Below are positions 1 to 12,000 of a stretch of 16,465 nucleotides of DNA, piece by piece. The stretch covers positions 1 through 16,465 of IMG/VR virus record IMGVR_UViG_3300014720_000027. One strand, 5' to 3'. The notes beneath the pieces are model-generated. The model was not told the DNA's origin. It made no database searches and saw nothing but the letters and a program-made list of their open reading frames with translations. The translations under genes were made by a program, and so were the position numbers. How positions within the stretch are numbered: position 1 is the stretch's first letter; every line of letters starts with the position of its first letter. The stretch is from a virus. Its lineage: Duplodnaviria > Heunggongvirae > Uroviricota > Caudoviricetes.

Positions 1-492
1 ATAGCCCGGTCTAATATGTGGCGTACTATTTGGGTTTCAAGCAAAAAGATAGAACTTTTTAACCGAGCCGCAGTTGATTTAACCAGAGACCAACTCACCC
101 TTTGTTCTTATTCACATATGTATGATTCTGTGCATGAAAGCCCAGAAAGCCCTAGCGAAAAGGTTATAGAGGACGATGACTGTTTAGATGGCTGGTTTAT
201 ATTCCAAAGACGTAAACATGAAAAGGATAAGAAGATGCAGGAAACCGAAGAACTTATTAAAAATCCCAAGATTAAAAACTCTAAAGAGGTTTTTGTTATG
301 GCTAAAAATAAACAAGAGGCAGAATCTATTAATGATCTTAATAATGAATTTTCAAAAGCTCTTGTTCAGCAAAGAAAACAAATCATACAAGAAAAAGGGT
401 CTGCTAAAGATACTGATTTTGTTGACGTTCAAACAGAATTACAAATGGAGAGGCAACAGGCTTTTATGAATAAAATGAAAGGTAGGAAATAA
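1..492 (+). CDS. Phage hypothetical protein, 5'-truncated (possibly tail-assembly related)
   Basis: The frame is open from position 1 (ATA GCC CGG TCT AAT ATG TGG = IARSNMW...), and the ATG at 16 has no clear Shine-Dalgarno, so the gene probably starts upstream of the window. Motif YDSVHESPESPSEKVIEDDDCLDGW is followed by charged helical sequence. The TAA (490-492) overlaps the next ATG. Function is not identifiable. Confidence 0.75.
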   Translation: MARSNMWRTIWVSSKKIELFNRAAVDLTRDQLTLCSYSHMYDSVHESPESPSEKVIEDDDCLDGWFIFQRRKHEKDKKMQETEELIKNPKIKNSKEVFVMAKNKQEAESINDLNNEFSKALVQQRKQIIQEKGSAKDTDFVDVQTELQMERQQAFMNKMKGRK

Positions 493-836
493 TGGAAGAT
501 GATTTTAATGAAATGTTAAAACTTTCTTTAGAAAGAAAAAGGTTTAAAGAAGAGGGGCTTAAAGAAGTCTCAAAAAATAAACTTTATCAAGCTGCTAAGA
601 AAAAGATTTTAACTACGATGATTGGGGCCTTAGACTCGATAGAAAAGAGTTTTGGGTTTTTATGGAGCAGAGAAGAAACGACAGAACAAAAACAAATGCG
701 AATCATTTATGATCAAATTCGCTCTGAGATTTTAGATAAAGGTAATACCCAGATTCGTAATTTGGAAGCCGAGTTTAGTAATTATGATATAGTATTTAAA
801 AAATACACTACAAAGATTCCGTTTAAGAAAGGATAA
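492..836 (+). CDS. Phage hypothetical protein (114 aa, predominantly helical)
   Basis: ORF coupled to the upstream gene by TAATG, with purine-rich AAGGTAGGA upstream. It fills the space between neighbours. No family recognised. Confidence 0.8.
   Translation: MEDDFNEMLKLSLERKRFKEEGLKEVSKNKLYQAAKKKILTTMIGALDSIEKSFGFLWSREETTEQKQMRIIYDQIRSEILDKGNTQIRNLEAEFSNYDIVFKKYTTKIPFKKG
828..833 (+). promoter_or_regulatory. Shine-Dalgarno site for the gene starting at 842
   Basis: AAAGGA at 828-833, 8 nt before ATG 842. Confidence 0.6.
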
Positions 837-841
837 AAAAG

Positions 842-1711
842 ATGGCAAAAGTAGAAACAGTAAAAGGTAAAGATTTGGCCGGGAATGAAGTCGTTATGGT
901 TGTAAAATCACCATCTCCAAAAAATTTGAGAGATGCTCAGATTGTTTATAACAAGGCTCTTAGGACAGCTCTTGAAAGCGGGGCTATTTTGAGACGCAAA
1001 TTAAATGACTTTTTGACCGAGCAAAAGGTTTGGGATTCTGATAAAGAAAACAGTTATCAAAAAATTCTAAAAGAAATTTCGGCCCATGAAGATATGATTA
1101 AGACCGGGGGTATTGCTCTAAAAAGGGGTAAGGAAATTGCTCTAGAGCTAAGAGACCTGAGACTTAAACTCCGGGAACTTCTATCTGAGAGACAGGTTTA
1201 TGACGCAACTACCGCAGAAGGACAAGCCGACAATACACAGTTTAATTTTCTTGTATCGGTATGCACTTTTAAAGAAAATGGAAGCGATTTATTGTGGTCT
1301 AGCTTGGAAGAATATGATAACTCTCGCGAGCCATATGCGGCAGATGCGGCTTCGGCGTTGGCAAAGATGATTTATGATCTTGATCCGGATTATGATAATA
1401 ATTTGACAGAAAACAAATTCTTGAAGAAATTTAAGTTTGTGCGCGATGATCTTCGTTTAGTTAACAAAGAAGGCCACTTGATTGATGAAGAAGGGCGTTT
1501 AATCAATGAAAATGGACGCTTCGTAGCATACAGGGCTGACGGAACTCAGTATTTCGTTAATAGAGACGGGGAAGAAGTCGACGCTGATGGCGAAAAGAAA
1601 ATAGAAGCATTGCCGTTTTTAGACGATGACGGAAACCCCATTTTAGATGAACCCGTTGTTGAAAAAGAGGTTGTTGAAGAAAAAACAGAGATCGTTGAAG
1701 AAAATGTGTAA
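842..1711 (+). CDS. Probable tail assembly chaperone (gpG/TAC-like position); 289 aa with C-terminal DxxG repeats and acidic tail
   Basis: Clear ORF with a Shine-Dalgarno site, immediately upstream of the TMP, which is the conserved position of tail assembly chaperones in long-tailed phages. N-terminal beta strands are followed by long helices and an acidic C-terminus. The CDS is secure; the product is a positional inference. Confidence 0.6.
   Translation: MAKVETVKGKDLAGNEVVMVVKSPSPKNLRDAQIVYNKALRTALESGAILRRKLNDFLTEQKVWDSDKENSYQKILKEISAHEDMIKTGGIALKRGKEIALELRDLRLKLRELLSERQVYDATTAEGQADNTQFNFLVSVCTFKENGSDLLWSSLEEYDNSREPYAADAASALAKMIYDLDPDYDNNLTENKFLKKFKFVRDDLRLVNKEGHLIDEEGRLINENGRFVAYRADGTQYFVNRDGEEVDADGEKKIEALPFLDDDGNPILDEPVVEKEVVEEKTEIVEENV
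1457..1642 (+). repeat. Protein-level ~7-aa repeats, (L/V/F)(V/I/L)(N/D)xxG
   Basis: LVNKEGH, LIDEEGR, LINENGR, AYRADGT, FVNRDGE, EVDADGE, FLDDDGN: seven units read from the 842-1711 translation. Confidence 0.75.
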
Positions 1712-1737
1712 TACATAGCGGGGATAGTGTGTTTTTT

Positions 1738-1779
1738 AGGGCAGTCCATATATAGCTGTATATGTGGCTGCCTTTTTTT
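1738..1779 (+). terminator. Intrinsic terminator-like hairpin between chaperone and TMP
   Basis: The arms GGCAGTC-CATATATA (1740-1754) pair with TGTATATG-T-GGCTGCC (1757-1772), with G-U wobbles and one bulge, followed by T7 (1773-1779). This lies in the only sizeable intergenic gap (1712-1793). Confidence 0.7.
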
Positions 1780-1781
1780 AT

Positions 1782-1785
1782 AGGA
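1782..1785 (+). promoter_or_regulatory. Shine-Dalgarno site of the TMP gene
   Basis: AGGA 8 nt upstream of ATG 1794, supporting 1794 rather than GTG 1764 as the start. Confidence 0.65.
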
Positions 1786-1793
1786 ATACAAGA

Positions 1794-4700
1794 ATGGCTA
1801 AATTCGTTTTAACGGCTCAGATAGCTTTACAAGCTCCTAATAATGTAGGACGAGTAGTTAACCAAATTAAAAGACAGTTGCAGGGGATTAATGTTAATAT
1901 TAATGTTAATGCCAATACTCGGACTTTAAATAATGTAAATAATCAGCTTAATACTACAACCAAAGCAGCTAAAACGGCTCAACATTCTATTTCCGAGCTA
2001 GGTAAAAGTCTTGGCTTGGCTGCTAGACGATTTGGCGCTATTGCTATTGCTACCGGAACATTTTTAAGTTTAAGCCGGGCCATTAAAAGCTCTTTAGGCG
2101 ATGCTATTGAGTTTGAGCGTCAATTGGTGAACCTGTCTCAGGTTACAGGTAAGTCTGTTCAAAACCTACAAGATATTACAAAAGAAATTACACGACTATC
2201 TACGGGCCTCGGCGTTTCATCCGACCAACTATTAAAGACAAGCGTTATTTTAGCTCAAGCGGGCTTGGAAGCTAGTAAAACTAAGGCGGCCCTTGAGGTA
2301 TTGGCCAAAACAGAACTAGCCTCATCTTTCGATAATATTACCAATACTACCGAAGGTGCTATTGCTATTCTTAGCCAGTTTAGAAGAGAAGCTGCGGCGG
2401 CTGGCGGTGATATTATTTATCTTGAAAGAGCTTTGGGTGCTATTAACGATGTTAGTAAAAAGTTTGCGGTAGAATCTTCCGACTTGGTTGCTGTTATTCG
2501 TCGTTCCGGTGGTGCATTTGAGGCTGCCGGTGGTTCTCTGAATGAGCTTTTAGCTTTATTTACATCTGTTCGTGCAACTACCCGTGAATCTGCGGAAACG
2601 ATTGCTACGGGTCTTAGAACTATTTTTACACGTATTCAGCGTGTTGATACTATTCGTCAGTTGCAAGAGCTAGGCATTGCACTGCAAGATACCGAAGGTA
2701 AATTCGTTGGGCCTTTTGAAGCTATTAAACGTATTTCCGAAGGCTTGTCTGGTCTTGATCCTAGAGACTTTAGATTTTCTGCTATTGTTGAAGAATTGGG
2801 CGGTTTCCGTCAGATTGGTAAAGTGATTCCGCTTATTAAGCAATTTGCCTTGGCTCAAGACGCCTTAAATACAGCGCAGGGCGCATCATCAAGTCTAACA
2901 AAAGATGCTGAAATCGCTCAGCTTTCTTTAGCTAATCAACTGGCGAAGGTAAGGGAAGAATTTCAGGCTTTGATTCGTCGCTTTGTAGATAGTAGCAGTT
3001 TTCAAACAGTGGCCCGTGGAGCTTTAGAATTTGCTAGAGCCTTGATTAGAATTGCTGACGCTATATCGCCCTTGATTCCTTTGATTGCTAGCTTAGCCGC
3101 TATTCAAATTGGCAAAGGTTTTATTCCAGCTTTAGGAGCATTGACAGGAGTAGCTAGACGTAATCAAGGCGGAAAAATTCATGCGTTTGCTAGCGGCGGT
3201 TTCGTGCCCGGCAGCGGAAATCGTGATACTGTTCCAGCGATGTTAACACCGGGCGAATTTGTTATTAGAAAAAGCAGTGTTAATAAAATTGGCACTGAAA
3301 ATCTGCAAAAATTAAACAGAGGTGGGACTGTTCAAAAAAATATTTGGGATGCTGATAAAGGTAATGTTGCCGCTGTTACGTTAGAAGATAAAAAATTAAA
3401 TCCTTTAACTACAAGTGTTTCGTACAAAGATTCTATTGAAAGCTTGGCTGATAGTAGAGGTATAAAACTTAAAAATAAATATCAGATAGATAAATTTTCA
3501 ATTTCTAAAAATTTGAAAGATATTACTGGAGAAAAATTAACAGAAAATATTTTAGATGGGGCGCAGGCAGCGATGGAGCAAACAGCCTCTCTAATACGTT
3601 CTGCTGGCTTAGATATTCCAACCCCTCTTTTAGATGAATCTGCCAAAGGAAAATTTGCTAAATCTATTGGTATTGGAACGGTTGGAGCTATTTTTGAATC
3701 TATTGTAGCTTCAATTAGAGATCCTAAATTTACAGATATGGATGATCAACAAAGACCATTCGATTTTATTGGAGGGCTGGGGAAGGCCGCAAGTCTTTTT
3801 GATAATACTCTAACGGATGTAAATACATATAGATATGTAGATGCTAAAGCTACTTCTAACGCTGCCTCTGGTAAGTCCTTTAAGAAAAAAATTCAAGGGC
3901 AAGTTGAAAGAGAATTACTCGGAACTGTTGGAAAGTCTGGTCAGGGCAAAGAAAATCCTCTTTCTAAAATTAGAGGGGTTTTTAGTAAAAAACAGCTAGA
4001 ACAAAAACTGCGGGACGAACGCCTTATAAATAAAGAAACAAAAGGCTCTAAACTAGACGAATGGTTAAATAAAAATAATATAGATAAATATGCAACAGTA
4101 GAAAATCTTGGTCCGGGCAAAGGTTTTCGATATTCTTTTAATTCTCCTAAAAAACAAATGTCGTTAGATTTAGAAGAAAAGTTTTTTGGTGGAAGAATTC
4201 AAAAATTTGCTAAAGGGGGTGCGGCTAGCGATACTGTTCCAGCCCTATTAACACCGGGCGAATTTGTTGTTAATAAAAAAACCGCCCAAGAGGTTGGCTA
4301 TGGCACTTTAAATAGAATGAATAAGACGGGCGATGTTCAGGGCTTCGCTAAGGGCGGAGTGGTTGGCTATCAAAGATTTGCAAGTGGTGGTGGGCCAGTT
4401 CAGCCGAGCCCTTTAAATGTTTCATCTCAAGGCCCTCCAACGGCAAACACGACCGCTCTTGCGCAAACATTTGATCAGTTGGTCCAGCAGGGCGGAGGTA
4501 TGGTTACATCTTTCAATTTATTAAAATCCGCTGTTGAAGAAATGCAAGCTGCTGGAGTTAAATTTACAACAGCAGAAAAAGCTGCAATAAAACAAATGAC
4601 AGATGATGCTAGGAAAAAAGCTACTGCGGAAAAAACACAAATCGATAGCTATAAAAAGCTTCAACAATCACAACAAGATGCTAAAGATAGATTAGCCAAT

Positions 4701-7700
4701 TTTAAATCTGGCATAGAAAAAACTTTGGGCTCTATGCAGCAATTTGTATTTTTAGGTTCTACAGTGGCCGCATTAGCTACGCAGTTTTCTAGTTTAGACG
4801 AGGCTACAAATAGCGCTATTGCTGAAACACTTGGTATGGGCGCTAGTATTGTCGGTGTAATTGGAACAGTTGGAGATTTGATATTAAGTACGGGCTTAGC
4901 TGACACTGCCTTAAAATATTTTACTGCTTCTGTTACAAGAGCGGGTACTGCTGCGGCAGCTTCTAGCGCTGCTGGAGCCGCTGGAAAAGCTGGTGGTGGT
5001 GCTGCTGCTAGCGCCGGTTTGCTCGGTAGACTTATTCCGTTAATTGCCAATCCTTTTGGGGCTGTAATAGCAATTGTTGTAGCGGCTTTAGCTGGTTTTG
5101 CAGCATATATTTATTTCATACAAGCTAGAGCTAGAAAAGTGGCTGAAAATCTTAGAAAATCCGCCGACACAATAGCTGATAGCATAGAAAAGGGTAAGGG
5201 TGGATCAACTCAAGAATTTGTCGATTTACAAGTTAAGGCCGCTCAGACTGTTACAGACTCGTATTTAACTTTTGGCGGTCTCTTGGATAATATGGGACTT
5301 ACTTCTGCTAAGGCTAGACAGGAAGAAATTGATGCTGTTAAACGATCTGCCGAAGCTTATATTGGAGCAGTTAAAAGCATTTCTGATGTCAACCAGTCTC
5401 TTGCTAATATTGATCTAGATAAAACTTTAAAACCGGCAGAAGCGGCTTTCAAGAAAATAGCGGCAATTGATACTGGAGTAAGATCACAGACTGGCGTATT
5501 ATCTGGTCCAAGTTCTCAGTTTCAAGAAATTGCTAAACTGGCCGATAGAGAGGGAATTCGTAAACCTGTTTCACAAATTACCGAAGCTGATTTCAGTAGT
5601 GACACAGCCAAGGCTCAATTTAAATTAGCTAATGATGCTATTACAAAAGTTACAGAAGATTTTGAAAAAAGAATACCAGAATCTATTTCTTTGCTTCAAA
5701 CACAATTAGAGGATTCATTACAATCTGTAAATTTTGGTCAAGCTGCTACCAAAGATTTAAATTTAGATGGCGTTGTCGATTCTTTTGATACTGTGCTTCA
5801 GCAAAATCAAGACTTTGGCAATAGTGTTAATACTGTAACAAAGTTAATTCAAATTGAAGCTCAGGCTAGAGCAGACGCCGCAAGACAGGCTGGGAAATTC
5901 GTAGAAGCTGGTAATATCGAAGCCGCTGCTCAAGAAAGGGTTAAAGTTGTCCAAGAAGCTATTCAAAAACAGGCAGTGGCTTTCGCTAAGTCTCAGGAAT
6001 CAGCTTTAGCTTTTCAAGCTGCGCTAGAAGCTAGTACGGCTCAGTTTAAAGGCTTGTCTGCAACTACTCAATTTATATCTAAGCTAGGCGATCAGGCTAA
6101 GCAATTTGGAAATAGAATATCTACTCTTGGCGATATAATGTCTGGAGAAATGCCGACATTTGAAGTTGATCAAATACAAGGCTTGGGAAATTTGTCTGAA
6201 ATTCAAGATTTGGATAAATTTACACAAGAGGTTGGTAAGCTTGGGGCATCAATGGGTCCCAAAGGTAAAGAGTTAGCAGGAAATCTTATTCAAAGCGCCG
6301 ATTTAATGCAAAATGCTAAAAGAGAATTGACCGGCATTAATTTTGCTGAAATCGGTGGTGGTGAAGAAAGCGCTGCTAAAACTGCGTTTAAAAAGGCTTT
6401 TGGTGATCAATTAGAGACCATATTCGGTCCACAGGTTGGCGGTAAACTTAGAACCGTTATGGAAAAGCGATTAGAAGACGCTATTAGAACCGCTAGCGAA
6501 GGCGGTGGCATGGTCGATCCAGTCGAACTTGAAAACATTTTAGATCCTCTAAAACAAATGACAGAGGAAACTAGAAAAATGTTTGAAGCATATAACAATG
6601 CTCAAATAGAATTTGTTAATCAATATAATAATACAAGTAAGATGTTGCTTGAGGTTATGGAGCGAGATATTGATGGTAGACAAAAAATTGTTGATATACA
6701 AAATCGTGGCCTAGAAAGAATGGATCAGGCTACAGGTAGAACGCTGGGCTTTCAGGAAAAAGAAGCTAGAAGAAATGCCTCAAGGGGATCTAGATTAGGC
6801 TCTTTAGGTCTTGGTGCTTTAACTGGCGATATTCGTGGCATGGGAAATGCTTTAAGAAATACCAACCAAAGCTTGGAAGTAAATTCTCAGAAAATAAAAC
6901 AAGACCCCGGGAACGAAGTTCTTGGCAGATCTCAAAGATTGCTAACTCTTCAAGCTAATGAGCTAAAGAAAGCTCTGGAAGATTTAACCGATCAAAGCGA
7001 TAAAGCTAGTGATATAATGGGGGAAATCGATAAAGAAAGAGGAAAAAGAGAAACCTTGACCAAAATTGTTGAAGATTTTGTTGTTGGCAGCAACGAAGAG
7101 AGAATGAGTACTGTAAGACAGTTTCAAGGAATTGAATTTGCGGCAGCTACGGGTAGCCTACAAGGATTACAGCCGGAAGACAGAAAGGCTACTTTTGGAT
7201 TATTGAGTCAATTAGCCGACGTTGACGATGGTTTTAAGCAATTAAAAGAAAATTTGGTTACGAGAGATGCTATAGCTATGGGCCTTCCTCCAGAATTGGC
7301 AAGAGCCTTAGCTACAAAAACCCCAAAAGAAGAACAATTGTTGGTAGAATTAAGTAATTTGACCGCGCAAGAAATAGCCGCTCAACAAGAATTAAATCGT
7401 ATTAATGCAGAGTTTGGAGTAAAGCTTTCTACAGAAATAAATAATTTATCTCAAAAAATAAAAGATTTAGGATCGGTGATTGAGTCTAAGCTAAATACAG
7501 AAGTGGCTAAAGCTGAGAAAGAACAAGACGCTGACAAAGCTTTGGTAGCGGCTGAAAAAGCCAAGCAGGAAGCATTAGCTGAGCCTCGACAAAAGTTATC
7601 TCAAGCTAAAACAAATAGAGAAAACAAAGAAAAAGAAATACGGCAAAAAGAAATAGAGTTAAAGGGAGCAAGAGAAGCGGCTGCTGCTGGAATTCAACAA

Positions 7701-9095
7701 GCTGACGAGGCTAAAAACAGAACTAGAACATGGACGGATGCAGTAATAGAAAATGCTCCAATGGCCTTTGGTCCAGCAGGAATGGCGTATAGCGCTATGG
7801 GTGGACCTTCTCCAATAACAAGTTATCGCCAAACAGAAATAAGTGGTTATGAGCAAAATATAACTGACCAACAAACTATTGCTAGTCAAAGAGAGGCTGA
7901 ATTAAATGCATTAAGACAAGAGCAACAAAGACTCTTATCAGAAGAGCAATCAGCTCAAGAGGAATTAAAAAAGGCCCAAAAAAAAGCAAGAGGTGGATTG
8001 GTATATCGTGCTTCTGGCGGCTCTATTTTTAAACCCAAGGGCACAGATACTATTCCTGCGATGCTAACGCCCGGCGAATTTGTGATGCAAAAATCTGCAG
8101 TAGATAAATATGGCGTAGGTACTATGAGTGCCATGAATCAAGGAGTGGTTTATGCTTCTACGGGAGGCACTCCGGATGATCTTGAAACATATAGATACAG
8201 AAGCGAGGTTACAGATAGATCAAAAATTCAAAAAGAAATGGATAGATTAAAAGGCGGAAATTATGATGTAGGTAATGTGAACGCTGCTGATATGTATAAT
8301 AGATTAGCAGAAAGGGATAACGAGTTGTCTAAATCTAATAAAGAATCTATAACAAATAGATTACAGTATTATCCAAAATCAAGCACTAAACAGGCTGATT
8401 TTTCTGAGCCACAGTACTTAAAAGATAGAGATGCAAAGCTAAACAAAGAGATACAAGAGACTTCTCAAAAAAGGAGAGAAAGCTCTGTTAAGCGAATTAG
8501 AGACGAACAGAGACAAGAAGATAAGAAAAGTGGCGTAATTAAAACGTTTAAACCAAATGTTAATGCTCCAAAATACAAAACAGCGTCACAAAGATCTGAA
8601 GAAAGAAGACAAAAGGCCTATAGAGAAAAAGATGCAGTTCAAAGAATGCAAGATCGAGGAAGGTTTTTTCCTAATACAGGCGGGTATGGCTTTAATAATT
8701 ATAATCAAATTACACCAACTCAAAGCCAACAAGGTTTTTATGGGGTTGGAGCTGGGTCAAAAGGATTAATGGCTCAATCGCAAACAATGGCTCAAAATCA
8801 GATTATGACACAAGGGGTGGCAGGTGTTCAGGGTATGAATGGCGGAATTGCCCAAGGTCAGGGCTTTAATATGGAGCCACTTATGCAACTAAAACAAACC
8901 TTTGACAACTTGGCTGGTGTATTAAATAATATGCAGATGACACACACGGTTAATGTTGATGGGGCTTTGAATATTAACGGTGTAGATGCTCCGCAAGTAG
9001 CAGAAGCTATTAAAACATATTTAGGAAACTTTATTGTTTCTGAAGTAAACAAGATTATAAATAGTCAGGGCAAGGGCTTTAAAGGACCACAATGA
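1794..9095 (+). CDS. Phage tail tape measure protein (TP901-family core), 2433 aa, with inserted domains
   Basis: The N-terminal core is typical of TP901-type TMPs (FERQLVNLSQVTG...LAQAG...LGAINDVSKKFAVESSDL...GGSLNELLALFTSVRATTRESAETIATGLRTIFTRIQ). It has long Ala/Gln/Glu/Lys-rich coiled coils, Ala/Gly-rich hydrophobic helices, DTVPAMLTPGEFV motifs, and a C-terminal strand-helix end (THTVNVDGALNING...VAEAIKTYL). Start reassigned from 1764 to 1794. Confidence 0.95.
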   Translation: MAKFVLTAQIALQAPNNVGRVVNQIKRQLQGINVNINVNANTRTLNNVNNQLNTTTKAAKTAQHSISELGKSLGLAARRFGAIAIATGTFLSLSRAIKSSLGDAIEFERQLVNLSQVTGKSVQNLQDITKEITRLSTGLGVSSDQLLKTSVILAQAGLEASKTKAALEVLAKTELASSFDNITNTTEGAIAILSQFRREAAAAGGDIIYLERALGAINDVSKKFAVESSDLVAVIRRSGGAFEAAGGSLNELLALFTSVRATTRESAETIATGLRTIFTRIQRVDTIRQLQELGIALQDTEGKFVGPFEAIKRISEGLSGLDPRDFRFSAIVEELGGFRQIGKVIPLIKQFALAQDALNTAQGASSSLTKDAEIAQLSLANQLAKVREEFQALIRRFVDSSSFQTVARGALEFARALIRIADAISPLIPLIASLAAIQIGKGFIPALGALTGVARRNQGGKIHAFASGGFVPGSGNRDTVPAMLTPGEFVIRKSSVNKIGTENLQKLNRGGTVQKNIWDADKGNVAAVTLEDKKLNPLTTSVSYKDSIESLADSRGIKLKNKYQIDKFSISKNLKDITGEKLTENILDGAQAAMEQTASLIRSAGLDIPTPLLDESAKGKFAKSIGIGTVGAIFESIVASIRDPKFTDMDDQQRPFDFIGGLGKAASLFDNTLTDVNTYRYVDAKATSNAASGKSFKKKIQGQVERELLGTVGKSGQGKENPLSKIRGVFSKKQLEQKLRDERLINKETKGSKLDEWLNKNNIDKYATVENLGPGKGFRYSFNSPKKQMSLDLEEKFFGGRIQKFAKGGAASDTVPALLTPGEFVVNKKTAQEVGYGTLNRMNKTGDVQGFAKGGVVGYQRFASGGGPVQPSPLNVSSQGPPTANTTALAQTFDQLVQQGGGMVTSFNLLKSAVEEMQAAGVKFTTAEKAAIKQMTDDARKKATAEKTQIDSYKKLQQSQQDAKDRLANFKSGIEKTLGSMQQFVFLGSTVAALATQFSSLDEATNSAIAETLGMGASIVGVIGTVGDLILSTGLADTALKYFTASVTRAGTAAAASSAAGAAGKAGGGAAASAGLLGRLIPLIANPFGAVIAIVVAALAGFAAYIYFIQARARKVAENLRKSADTIADSIEKGKGGSTQEFVDLQVKAAQTVTDSYLTFGGLLDNMGLTSAKARQEEIDAVKRSAEAYIGAVKSISDVNQSLANIDLDKTLKPAEAAFKKIAAIDTGVRSQTGVLSGPSSQFQEIAKLADREGIRKPVSQITEADFSSDTAKAQFKLANDAITKVTEDFEKRIPESISLLQTQLEDSLQSVNFGQAATKDLNLDGVVDSFDTVLQQNQDFGNSVNTVTKLIQIEAQARADAARQAGKFVEAGNIEAAAQERVKVVQEAIQKQAVAFAKSQESALAFQAALEASTAQFKGLSATTQFISKLGDQAKQFGNRISTLGDIMSGEMPTFEVDQIQGLGNLSEIQDLDKFTQEVGKLGASMGPKGKELAGNLIQSADLMQNAKRELTGINFAEIGGGEESAAKTAFKKAFGDQLETIFGPQVGGKLRTVMEKRLEDAIRTASEGGGMVDPVELENILDPLKQMTEETRKMFEAYNNAQIEFVNQYNNTSKMLLEVMERDIDGRQKIVDIQNRGLERMDQATGRTLGFQEKEARRNASRGSRLGSLGLGALTGDIRGMGNALRNTNQSLEVNSQKIKQDPGNEVLGRSQRLLTLQANELKKALEDLTDQSDKASDIMGEIDKERGKRETLTKIVEDFVVGSNEERMSTVRQFQGIEFAAATGSLQGLQPEDRKATFGLLSQLADVDDGFKQLKENLVTRDAIAMGLPPELARALATKTPKEEQLLVELSNLTAQEIAAQQELNRINAEFGVKLSTEINNLSQKIKDLGSVIESKLNTEVAKAEKEQDADKALVAAEKAKQEALAEPRQKLSQAKTNRENKEKEIRQKEIELKGAREAAAAGIQQADEAKNRTRTWTDAVIENAPMAFGPAGMAYSAMGGPSPITSYRQTEISGYEQNITDQQTIASQREAELNALRQEQQRLLSEEQSAQEELKKAQKKARGGLVYRASGGSIFKPKGTDTIPAMLTPGEFVMQKSAVDKYGVGTMSAMNQGVVYASTGGTPDDLETYRYRSEVTDRSKIQKEMDRLKGGNYDVGNVNAADMYNRLAERDNELSKSNKESITNRLQYYPKSSTKQADFSEPQYLKDRDAKLNKEIQETSQKRRESSVKRIRDEQRQEDKKSGVIKTFKPNVNAPKYKTASQRSEERRQKAYREKDAVQRMQDRGRFFPNTGGYGFNNYNQITPTQSQQGFYGVGAGSKGLMAQSQTMAQNQIMTQGVAGVQGMNGGIAQGQGFNMEPLMQLKQTFDNLAGVLNNMQMTHTVNVDGALNINGVDAPQVAEAIKTYLGNFIVSEVNKIINSQGKGFKGPQ
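3162..3326 (+). repeat. TMP di-glycine module, copy 1
   Basis: NQGGKIHAFASGGFVPGSGNRDTVPAMLTPGEFVIRKSSVNKIGTENLQKLNRGG. DNA core at 3225-3263. Confidence 0.9.
3675..3848 (+). other. Putative PD-(D/E)xK restriction-endonuclease-fold catalytic motif inside the TMP
   Basis: GTVGAIFE (E codon 3696), RPFDF (D codon 3762) and YVDAK (D 3840, K 3846), followed by a helix (SFKKKIQGQVERELLG). Order and spacing match E...PD-x(10-30)-(D/E)xK. Pattern recognition only; no HMM or structure search was run. Confidence 0.5.
4182..4394 (+). repeat. TMP di-glycine module, copy 2
   Basis: FFGGRIQKFAKGGAASDTVPALLTPGEFVVNKKTAQEVGYGTLNRMNKTGDVQGFAKGGVVGYQRFASGGG. DNA core at 4230-4268. Confidence 0.9.
4737..5120 (+). 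other. TMP hydrophobic/transmembrane cluster
   Basis: FVFLGSTVAALA and LGMGASIVGVIGTVGDLILSTG, then an Ala/Gly linker (4941-5018), then LIPLIANPFGAVIAIVVAALAGFAAYIYFI (5031-5120). A second hydrophobic stretch lies at about 3063-3152. Confidence 0.7.
7986..8168 (+). repeat. TMP di-glycine module, copy 3
   Basis: ARGGLVYRASGGSIFKPKGTDTIPAMLTPGEFVMQKSAVDKYGVGTMSAMNQGVVYASTGG. DNA core at 8046-8084. Confidence 0.9.
9081..9086 (+). promoter_or_regulatory. Shine-Dalgarno site for the gene starting at 9092
   Basis: AAAGGA 5 nt before the ATG that overlaps the TMP stop (ATGA). Confidence 0.55.
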
Positions 9096-12000
9096 CAAAT
9101 ACAAAAGAATCATTAGGACTACATGCAATATCGGACGGACCTTCGGGCGGTGTATATGTTAGAGCTAATCAGGCTAATCTAACTTTAAAAGCACCGCCCG
9201 TTGGAACTCCGCACTTTACTAATTGGGACGCTGGGCTTACTTCTCTTGAAAATACTACCAAAGAAAGATTTGAAAACAGAGGGGCTAGTAGATTTCTAGA
9301 ATATCATTACAGATATAATTTAGAAAGTGAAATAAGGATAAAATCATCGGCCAAAGATATAAAAATTGTCGATAATTTAGCCGCTATATCATTTCCGGAA
9401 TATACCGATCTTCGTAAAACAACGCTTGAATTCAGCACGCAGCTTTTTTCTTATCACTCCGGGTTCAAAGTTAATGCCTATGATTTTAATTGTATTGATT
9501 GGGAGGATGAATTACCCGCCGGGCATGTATTGATTCCTCAGTTTAATTTTGATACGATACTGGGGCCAATTGGACCAGCCTATCCGGCTGTTGCTACTAC
9601 CCCTAGATGGCAGGGCGATATAGACCTATATAATTTATTTATTATAGTCAAATATACCGGAGTTTATACTAAGAACGATGCCGATCCTTGTAATATAGCT
9701 GCTAATTACACAGAAAGTTCTTTAACGGATAAAATGCAGTTATTAAAATATAATCCTGATGCTTCATCTTTAAGCGTTGGAGAGTATTCAATGACTACAT
9801 TTTTTACCCCGGCTAATGTCGAAAAAAGAACTATAATTGCTAACATAGGCCACTCATTAGATATAGGCCCGGTAGAATATTTCGGACAGTCTATTAATAG
9901 TGTTAGCGGTCTTGTTCAGGGCTTTGGTAAAATTCAATGCTCTATAACTTTAGTAAAATATTTGCCCGTTTTTGAATGTGGTAGAGTAGACATATATAAT
10001 AAAAAACAAGGCTCTATTTCTTCTTATCAAAGTAATGGCAAGTTAGTTTCTTTGAGGCATGATTTAAACAATGGCGATATTATCAAGATTAGCGATGCTC
10101 AAAATTCTGAAATTAATGGCATTAGATATGTTCAAGTAATTAATGATTCTACTTTTAATATATATGGCGATGCTGATTTTACTCAAAAAATAAATAATAC
10201 TTACTATGAAGGTAGTCCGATATGGACAGCCTGTGGAAATGTTTATAATGAAGAATACCAATCTTGGAATTATGTCGGAAGTATTATCGGCAGTAATAAC
10301 TATGGTGTGAGTTATGCAGATTTCAAAAACTTTTTATTACCTAATTTGCAAAATAAAAACGCTTTATTAAGCGAAAAGTTTAATGACGCTGCAACATTTG
10401 AAGATATTTTATCTTTAGATTTTGATATTTCTTCTGCCCAGCTTTCTAATTTTAAACAATATCCGGGCTCTAGAGGTTCTACTTATGACAGTTTTTTTGC
10501 TTCTTTGGATTTTACGTCTTACTCTCAAGAAAATGTAGAAATTAAAAGGGCTGGCGCTGATGGAGTTTGGTTTGATTCTACTGCTCATAGTATTTTTTGG
10601 ACTTCTCCATTTAATTGTTTACATTCATTTAAGTTTGGATCGAGTATAGATTTGGTTAAGTATAAAAATAGATACGTTCTGGCTGTTGGTCAAAAAGGAT
10701 GGGAAAATATTGGGCTTTTGCCTAACAAACATATTCCAGAAACTCCTATATACGGAAGCGTTTCCCTGTTTGACATATATTTAGATTCCAATAAAAAACC
10801 GCTACCTCTACAAAATTATGACTCTGATCAAAATCCTATCAGATTTAATAGTACGGTTTATGCTCATACAAATGATTCTGAAATTGCGACCCCTCCATCG
10901 CCCGCTTATTACAATAATAGTTTTGGTCCGCTATTTAGAGATGATTTTTTAAACAGACAAGCGGCTGATTTTGCCTTGTTTAATTTTTCTGGAGATGCAA
11001 GATTTTTTAGAGATTATACCTTATATCCGTTTGATCTTGGAGGTAATGGAAATAATGATGCAATAGAAACAGCGTCCGGCATGGATTATTGGTACGGCTC
11101 TATGGTTTATAACCTTAGTGTTAATAGCGAAGATTTAAATATTGGATATAAATTATATTCAAGATCGGGCTCTACGGCAAATAACTGTAGAAATAAATAT
11201 TTTACAGACTGGCAAGTGCCTGAATTTTTGCCAATTAATAGCTCTTATTATTCTTATCCACCAATATGGAACAGGCCCGGCTATATTAATTATCCGTTCT
11301 TAGATAGATTTGGAAAAACTGTAGCTTTAGATGTATCGTCTAATCAGCTATTTTTATTCGTTGCGTCTACTACAAAACCTATTGTAGAACGAACAAAATT
11401 TTGTCCAGATGGAATATGTTCCGAAGATATGAGCTTGCTAGGCAGCACATGTAATAATACAAATTTAAATAAAACTCATTGTGGTTATATTCATGTTTTT
11501 AGAGTAGATGACGATCCTATTAGCGGCGGAAATGCGGATAATTTAAAAGCAATTAAGACTCAAAAAATATACGAAACAGAGGCGAGTATTTTACCAAGCG
11601 GAAAATACAGAGGGTTTTTTTATAAAGCGAATAAATTTGGTTCATGTATTATTGCAGAAAATGGTAAACTTATCTTTGGCCAAACAAAGCCCGCAGATTT
11701 TCATTCTGCATCAAATGGATCTATAGAAACTTCTAAAATATTTATTTACCAAAGGAGTGGAAATACTTATAATAAAATTTCAACTATAGAAAACGCAAGA
11801 CACAACAACTTTAATTTTAATACATATTTTTCTATCACAGAGCAGGGTGAGCTATATAATGAATTTGGAATCGACCATTTTGATCACAAGGAATTTTATT
11901 TAAGAGATAAATATAATGATGCGGATATATCTCCCTATACAGATTTTACAACCGGGGATTATTATTACCCTCCAGACAGATTTGGCACCTGCTTTAAGTG

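Follow-up and report, generated by a model that had tools for sequence, protein, structure and literature searches.

A giant tape measure protein with three lambda gpH-type modules as candidate maturation joints around exchangeable inserts

Introduction

The tape measure proteins (TMPs) of phages lambda and T5 are known to be cut near their C-terminus, and in Thermus phage P23-45 a TMP is known to carry an enzyme. In lambda, once the tail has been assembled, a C-terminal piece of ~14 kDa is split off gpH within a Gly-rich region. The tube then contains six copies of gpH*, but only three of gpHC are seen, bound to gpI and resolved at aa 818-849; gpH ~690-817 is not visible in the virion map, and neither the exact cut position nor the protease has been published (PMC12617516). 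In T5, pb2 is cut after R1127 into pb2* and pb2C, as mapped by mass spectrometry (Linares et al. 2023, PMC10038345), and it is the only TMP for which a cut has been mapped in this way. Here we analyse a 16,465-nucleotide stretch of viral DNA (hereafter the window; positions 1 to 16,465 of IMG/VR record IMGVR_UViG_3300014720_000027), in which the gene at 1794..9095 encodes a giant TP901-type TMP. This protein carries three copies of a glycine-flanked module that is homologous, as judged from sequence, to the unit at aa 732-785 of lambda gpH, within the region that is invisible in the lambda map. The modules stand between segments that are exchanged among relatives.

Two further systems resemble the window TMP in design. 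The P23-45 protein gp96 is a 5,002-aa TMP fused to a virion RNA polymerase, with the enzyme at its N-terminus (Chaban et al. 2024, PMC10770324), and is the published precedent for a TMP that carries an enzyme into the host. Polyvalent proteins are giant, multi-domain proteins that enter the host together with the DNA; they have shuffled domains and are proposed to be processed to yield separate products (Iyer et al. 2017, PMC5512222). The authors attribute the processing to a zincin-like MPTase domain, and the delivery goes through the head; the paper does not use the word 'tape' (PMC5512222). The window TMP shares neither the peptidase nor the architecture of these systems. Unlike the polyvalent proteins, it has a single Pfam match, PF10145, instead of several effector domains, and the MPTase domain (PF18818) is absent from its record.

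In Pfam, NCBIfam and the searched literature, we found no description of a module that marks the lambda cut region, of its presence in TMP-like genes of phage or prophage DNA attributed to many bacterial phyla, or of its multiplication around exchangeable inserts in thousands of uncultured phages. The literature search likewise returned no paper naming a TMP polyprotein, the module motif or multi-module TMPs.

Results and discussion

A giant TMP with three copies of the module

The record is linear, 80,465 bp long, with 34% G+C and an estimated completeness of ~55%, and the window is its first 16.5 kb. The largest open reading frame (ORF), 1764/1794..9095 (+), can be read from an in-frame GTG at 1764 upstream of the ATG at 1794, which gives 2,443 codons (1764..9095; protein P0001); the database form P0006 is identical to P0001 from residue 11. 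All residue numbers below are counted from GTG 1764, i.e. in P0001. Pfam PF10145 (PhageMin_Tail) matches aa 140-344 (E 5.8e-22; 79 bits, curated cut-off 33.2), in agreement with the TP901-core TMP that a first-pass annotation, made by a model from the letters alone, had recognised here. This is the sole Pfam match of the protein, and the PHROG TMP families 4211, 28 and 1533 match it within the first 470 aa. The core is followed by a long helical TMP body with hydrophobic stretches starting at aa 1023 and 1086; these two strongly hydrophobic stretches of the ruler, at ~nt 4830-5123, form the membrane helices (aa 1023-1120). Megablast of the window against 50,697 phage records gave no match, and tblastn of the whole TMP against annotated phage records reached only ~23% identity, between the core and SPbeta YomI-type TMPs. 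The gene product is a member of the TP901-type TMP family with the layout core, first module, cassette, second module, ruler with membrane helices, third module and tail (Table 1).

Table 1. Features of the TMP gene in the window; arrows mark candidate cut positions in the modules.
Feature	Position (nt)	Strand	Residues (aa)	Remarks
TMP gene	1794..9095	+		2,433 aa from ATG 1794 (database protein form P0006)
TP901/PhageMin_Tail-type N-terminal core	1764..3125	+	1-454	common to 144 of 151 family members
Module 1	3138..3383	+	459-540	NQGG-KIHAF↓ASGG ... DTVPAMLTPGEFV ... LNRGG
Cassette 1 ('cargo 1')	3396..4151	+	545-796	between modules 1 and 2; conserved domain with a PD-(D/E)xK-like motif
Module 2	4170..4403	+	803-880	FFGG-RIQKF↓AKGG ... 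DTVPALLTPGEFV ... GF↓AKGGVVGYQRF↓ASGGG
Ruler segment	4404..7952	+	881-2063	block kept in ~29 relatives
Module 3	7953..8192	+	2064-2143	ARGG-LVYR↓ASGG ... DTIPAMLTPGEFV ... VVYASTGG
C-terminal tail	8193..9092	+	2144-2443	K/R/E/D-rich, then Q/N/G-rich linker, then plug

The motif D-T-[VI]-P-A-[ML]-L-T-P-G-E-F-V occurs at aa 488, 823 and 2095, i.e. nt 3225, 4230 and 8046, exactly where the first-pass annotation had placed it, and each motif is centred in a 60-80-aa unit bracketed by Gly-Gly strands. The flanking strings it had quoted are all present: NQGG-KIHA-FASGG, FFGG-RIQK-FAKGG and ARGG-LVY-RASGG on the entry side, and NRGG, FAKGG...FASGGG and STGG on the exit side. Of the 26 GG runs of the protein, 10 lie inside the three modules, which cover 10% of its length (binomial P ~1e-4). 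The modules contain five strands of the type x↓A-x-G-G, namely F↓ASGG, F↓AKGG (twice), F↓ASGGG and R↓ASGG. The unit is indeed multiplied and internal, with two copies well before the membrane helices. Across the three copies 22 columns are invariant, and copy 3 uses a different codon from copies 1 and 2 at 7-8 of 17-18 same-residue positions; the conservation is therefore at the protein level and reflects selection on the protein.

At the DNA level, modules 1 and 2 (3219-3263 vs 4224-4268) are 84% identical over the 15-codon core and differ in 3 of 16 same-residue codons, whereas module 3 is 71-73% identical to either over the core. This suggests a more recent duplication of, or gene conversion between, the two modules that bracket cassette 1.

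The module family extends from lambda gpH to thousands of TMPs

Neither Pfam nor NCBIfam has a model for the module, even at E<=10. Searched against the Protein Data Bank (PDB), a profile built from the window copies found two copies in the TMP gp16 of mycobacteriophage Douge (8ZDO; aa 963-1025 and 1412-1472) and a single match in lambda gpH (aa 732-778; E 0.0066). With a deeper profile the lambda match reached E 3.3e-5 and the 1,158-aa TMP of 8RK3 was added (aa 1015-1073), and with the module hidden Markov model (HMM) the lambda domain was detected at E 2.1e-9. The lambda unit, which the first-pass annotation had cited, can be read in gpH itself: aa 731-782 run ...KFHF-ATGG-FTGTGGKYEPAGIVHRGEFVFTKEATSRIGVGNLYRLMRGY-ATGG..., with strands at F733/A734 and Y778/A779 and the overall pattern FATGG...HRGEFV...YATGG across aa 732-785. 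Lambda and the window phage have the same module and a C-terminal plug after it. Lambda has one copy, ~70-100 aa from the C-terminus and free of inserts, whereas the window protein has three, two of which are internal, upstream of the membrane helices, and bracket a foreign domain. By sequence, the modules belong to an uncurated family of lambda-gpH C-terminal units and depart from its single, near-terminal placement. Douge gp16, the Gordonia TMPs and the 8RK3 TMP also contain the module, but in fewer copies and with a different N-terminal core.

The module is widespread. By tblastn, 185 phage records (Gordonia, Burkholderia, Mycobacterium, cyanophages and others) have it within genes annotated as TMP, and several Gordonia phage records, including that of phage Yeezy, have it in two places. 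An exhaustive HMMER search of 1.84 billion cluster representatives, a scan of the kind proposed in the first-pass annotation, returned 18,231 proteins at E<=1e-3, of which 996 also reach E<=1e-30. The 150 best-scoring of the 18,231 are between 1,026 and 7,872 aa long and match the module in 3-12 stretches each; multi-copy forms proved common. Searching one genome per prokaryote species revealed 74 module loci in phage or prophage DNA, 28 of them with 2-5 copies within 20 kb. The phyla to which these loci are attributed include Actinomycetota, Bacillota, Proteobacteria, Bacteroidota, Planctomycetota, Verrucomicrobiota, Chloroflexota, CPR lineages and others.

A consensus was taken from 770 distinct module copies. 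The entry strand reads [GG]-h-h-Y-x-F-[A/S]-x-G(97%)-G(69%), in which the leading GG occupies HMM positions 15-16 in 60% of copies and the last two residues are G24/G25. The loop ends in D(94%)-T-V(90%)-P(95%)-A(93%)-M-L(95%)-T-P-G(99%)-E(93%)-F-V(94%), and is followed by a helix with the consensus N-K-x-A...G...L(87%)-x-x-h-N(94%). The exit consists of one or two more GG-V-V-Y-x-x-G-G strands, with G71/G72 present in 74/51% and G79/G80 in 70/43% of the copies. These frequencies make the GG flanks a feature of the family and not a peculiarity of the window gene. The residues D34, P37, A38, L40, G43, E44, V46 and N64 are each 93-99% conserved. Internal copies are as well conserved as terminal ones, so the internal copies are not decaying duplicates.

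Structure prediction of the module, another check proposed at the outset, gave no confident fold: the AlphaFold2 (AF2) monomer model from 120 sequences has a pLDDT of 60 and contains one helix. A homotrimer prediction scored 0.05, which gives no verdict and was counted neither way. The module also lies outside the resolved parts of the lambda and Douge virion maps. These two observations suit a linear signal better than a rigid structural unit, and the module behaves like a linear motif or a partner-dependent element rather than an autonomous domain.

The same data bear on a further possibility, that each module binds peptidoglycan as a small LysM-like unit, or otherwise acts on the envelope, and that its repetition helps to grip or breach the cell wall. 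By eye, the 21-residue spacing of G-E-F-V ... L-x-x-h-N resembles LysM G-D-T-L ... L-x-x-x-N, and the C-terminal fragment of T5 pb2 is reported to be muralytic (PMC10038345). When a profile of 120 module copies was aligned by hhalign to eight E. coli LysM domains, the probability was 0.3%, which speaks against the LysM assignment; moreover, Pfam LysM matches no module in the proteins scanned, and AF2 yields no beta-alpha-alpha-beta fold. We regard an envelope-gripping role as very improbable.

Inter-module segments are exchanged at the modules

The TP901-type core is directly followed by the first module in 144 of 151 proteins. The inner segments that follow have a bimodal length distribution, with peaks at 200-300 aa and ~1,000-1,200 aa, and the 567 inter-module segments of at least 60 aa fall into 254 clusters. 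Long segments inside one protein belong to different families and are not tandem copies. The 29 relatives that share the ruler have the layout core-[M]-X-[M]-ruler-[M]-(Y-[M])0-2-tail, where M is the module. Slot X is filled in these relatives by cassette 1 or by unrelated inserts of 190-550 aa, and slot Y, where present, adds a further cassette of 185-1,003 aa together with a module of its own. As X and Y vary while the ruler is kept, exchange takes place at the modules.

A few inserts contain recognisable domains. An ADP-ribosyltransferase domain (PF03496, ADPrib_exo_Tox) lies between modules 1 and 2 in two relatives, at aa ~1589-1671 of a 7,794-aa protein (P0002; E 9e-12) and at aa ~1161-1271 of a 7,122-aa protein (P0012; E 3e-9). 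EF-hand calcium-binding motifs are found in later segments of relatives, e.g. at aa ~3484-3508 of P0048. Apart from ADPrib_exo_Tox and the EF-hands, the other cassettes and long segments gave nearly nothing against Pfam and PHROG; the further segment matches are weak Gly-zipper matches and one weak NTase-associated match. The first-pass annotation had pictured variable folded domains, as opposed to coiled-coil filler, between the modules, and variable, domain-sized inserts are what the multi-copy proteins contain.

These segments allow a further account of the modules to be weighed, in which they serve as assembly or registration marks only, for an oligomeric switch (six to three) or a polymerisation pause, with the copies arising from duplication of a ruler unit and the segments being ruler. 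Many inter-module segments are indeed ~1,000-1,200 aa long and lack a Pfam match, and a six-fold to three-fold switch near the TMP C-terminus has been reported for lambda and phiTE. Against this stand the second length peak at 200-300 aa, the ADP-ribosyltransferase and EF-hand domains between modules, the different families of the long segments within one protein, and the fact that cassette 1 is a conserved non-coiled-coil domain whose position differs among relatives. We therefore consider it improbable that the modules are registration marks and nothing else.

Natural gene fission at modules was also looked for, and the two apparent cases, metagenomic family members whose TMP appeared to begin at a module, were artefacts. 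In L001 (3984-9192) the TMP is split by a frameshift within the core, and in L002 the split coincides with a run of N at 6950-7010, i.e. a scaffold gap. Gene calls in the module-TMP family are not to be used as evidence of fission.

Cassette 1 is a conserved domain and the tail is a linker with a plug

Of the 151 relatives, 36 have a homologue of cassette 1; it almost always lies between two modules, and its position along the protein varies. No free-standing homologues of 101-499 aa were found, and the cassette was seen only embedded in TMPs. An alignment of 34 sequences shows no variation at G641, E645 and D667 and conservation of 90% or more at F666, K695 and K709. The order of the motifs, G..FE (E645), PFD (D667) and (D/E)AK (K695), gives cassette 1 a PD-(D/E)xK-like signature, so that 'nuclease' can serve as a motif-level lead only. 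The AF2 model (pLDDT 74), to be compared with the alpha-beta-beta-beta-alpha-beta core of the PD-(D/E)xK superfamily, consists largely of helices, and its strands are very short. Foldseek against the PDB found no match at E<=0.001, the wide VIA-align search reached a best Z of 5.2 over 49 residues, which is not convincing, and the Atlas feature search scored 0.76. No match to cassette 1 was found in PHROGs. A match of the cassette 1 profile to ZMYND11 among PDB sequences was rejected as due to chance. In conclusion, the first cargo segment proposed in the first-pass annotation stands as a conserved, non-coiled-coil domain, but not as one with a recognisable fold.

The second proposed cargo, at the C-terminus, does not hold as a folded cargo. 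The 300-aa tail after the last module consists of a low-complexity linker and a conserved plug; the median distance from the last module to the C-terminus in the family is 125 aa. In 44 relatives the final ~90 aa (nt ~8808-9092) are conserved, with an invariant His in H-x-V-x-V-D-G (~8900-8925, aa ~2392-2400), and this end is presumed to be the plug that binds the hub. By eye only, H-x-V-x-V-D-G resembles the NNHVVINNDG of lambda gpH, which lies upstream of the gpI-bound helix. Homology of the plug to lambda gpH 775-853 was tried and is not supported by hhalign.

The modules as candidate maturation joints

The case for cutting at the modules draws on analogy with two TMPs, through the position of the module in lambda and the R1127↓AEGG pattern of T5. 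For lambda, the statement in the first-pass annotation that gpH is processed C-terminally to gpH* is borne out by the published work (PMC12617516). A cut at F733↓A734 would give fragments of ~79.7 and 12.6 kDa, the latter near the reported ~14 kDa, although cleavage within the poly-Gly run at aa 705-722 would account for the size equally well, and in lambda, too, the module is no more than a candidate cut site. For T5, the sequence at the mapped cut is ...NSFVPR↓AEGGMMYPG..., and R↓A-E-G-G follows the x↓A-x-G-G pattern seen in the entry strands of the window protein, e.g. VYR↓ASGG of module 3. Counted by hand, A-x-G-G occurs twice in the 1,219 aa of pb2, as ALGG near aa 139 and AEGG at 1128; this rarity makes the coincidence with the module strand notable, and the match is post hoc and could be due to chance. 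If the T5 rule is valid, the cut would fall before the Ala of A-x-G-G and not after Gly-Gly, as the first-pass annotation had assumed. Homology between the module and the part of T5 pb2 that spans the cut (aa 1100-1219) is not supported, with an hhalign probability of 0.4% and no match of the module HMM in pb2.

The best explanation overall, which we hold tentatively and rate a little below an even chance, is that the modules are maturation joints in a giant TMP and that a passenger is released and ejected. After tail assembly or on ejection, the protein would be cut between [F/Y/R] and [A/S]-x-G-G in the strands, by a protease yet to be identified or by the module itself. The predicted cuts are F475↓A476, F815↓A816 (also F861↓A862 and F872↓A873) and R2082↓A2083, with predicted fragments of ~475, 340, 1,267 and 361 aa. 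The tail would then hold and eject separate polypeptides, namely the core, a passenger of ~340 aa with the nuclease-like motif, a channel-forming ruler and a plug fragment. Besides the two analogies, this reading is supported by the undecayed internal copies, the exchange of cassettes at the modules, the ADP-ribosyltransferase passengers and the behaviour of the module as a linear signal. Cleavage, the exact place of the cuts, and a passenger that is ejected and active are all inferred; we consider it possible, though short of probable, that the modules are cut at all.

Several observations weigh against release by cutting. The equally good fit of the poly-Gly run in lambda, the post hoc nature of the T5 match and the failure of the T5 homology test belong here, as do the lack of a confident AF2 fold for the module, the absence of a Foldseek match for cassette 1 and the low-complexity character of the tail. 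No published evidence of cleavage was found for the window phage or for any multi-module TMP. Furthermore, the suggestion that a JAB/MPN or other protease might be encoded elsewhere in the genome was not borne out: the 80-kb record, estimated to be ~55% complete, contains no JAB (PF14464), NlpC/P60 (PF00877), MPTase (PF18818), S78 (PF04586) or M23 (PF01551) domain. The P23-45 precedent points the same way, as the enzyme of gp96 is proposed to work while still fused (PMC10770324) and gp96 does not contain the module.

The last two points lead to the alternative that the modules are uncleaved, flexible Gly-rich hinges with a conserved docking motif. The TMP would stay whole, its inserts would act while tethered to the trans-envelope channel, and the hinges, docked to the tube lumen, a tail chaperone, the hub or a component of the host envelope, would permit the insertion of foreign domains. 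Under this account gp96 shows that an enzyme can function while fused to a TMP (PMC10770324), cassette swapping needs only joints that tolerate recombination, the record without a protease is as expected, and the protein-level conservation from lambda through actinophages to the window phage fits binding to a conserved partner. On the other hand, lambda, the sole homologous case with data, is cleaved in the module region, and the module region is not visible in the lambda virion map. The paper on Douge models only aa 1658-1699 of the TMP, with diffuse TMP density along the tube (PMC13033339), and the lack of a module in gp96 counts here too. We regard uncleaved hinges as a realistic possibility that we do not favour.

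A wider form of the maturation-joint reading can be put forward as well. In this form the module would be a general, portable processing signal of TMPs and the determinant of gpH* formation in lambda; multiplied in the giant TMPs of uncultured phages, it would turn them into true polyproteins, all pieces of which, including passenger enzymes, are ejected ahead of the DNA. The passenger enzymes would be nuclease-like in the window protein and ADP-ribosyltransferases elsewhere. We think this generalisation rather unlikely as it stands. If the modules are cut sites, they would provide a concrete, mutable target for the 50-year-old question of how gpH becomes gpH*, would explain the mismatch between six-fold and three-fold symmetry in recent tail structures, and would make the tail lumen a second delivery route for phage effector proteins, beside the capsid. 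If they are uncut, the modules would still be a general insertion joint, usable for loading foreign domains into phage tails.

Neighbouring genes and related loci

The ORFs from 16 to 22670 are all co-directional on the + strand, and the TMP is the largest gene of this block. No neighbouring ORF has a Pfam or PHROG match. Three large ORFs (+) lie directly downstream of the TMP gene and are linked by start/stop overlaps: 9092-14584 (1,830 aa), 14584-16116 (510 aa) and 16113-16463+ (1,044 aa), the last of which continues past the window into the genome. None of the three matches Pfam or PHROG; they presumably encode giant proteins of the distal tail or hub, of a kind not yet described.

TMPs of the same family, with a core 51-55% identical and 3-5 modules, were found on five contigs (L016, L030, L034, L045 and L046). 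These contigs are binned in marine metagenome-assembled genomes of Gammaproteobacteria UBA3498, Verrucomicrobiales, SAR202 and Micavibrio, the binning of phage contigs being unreliable.

A different arrangement is seen in Enterococcus sp. BWB1-3 (L020; NZ_JADOEP010000002.1, 3160-19964). A 1,704-aa TMP-like gene ends there in a module and tail, and is followed downstream by a second paralogue, 945 aa long, and by orphan copies, at 9905-10357 and ~17000, that consist of module and tail only. Eleven ORFs of ~165-200 aa, paralogous among themselves, lie scattered among these. Each orphan copy begins at the entry strand of the module, and the arrangement recalls polymorphic-cassette loci.

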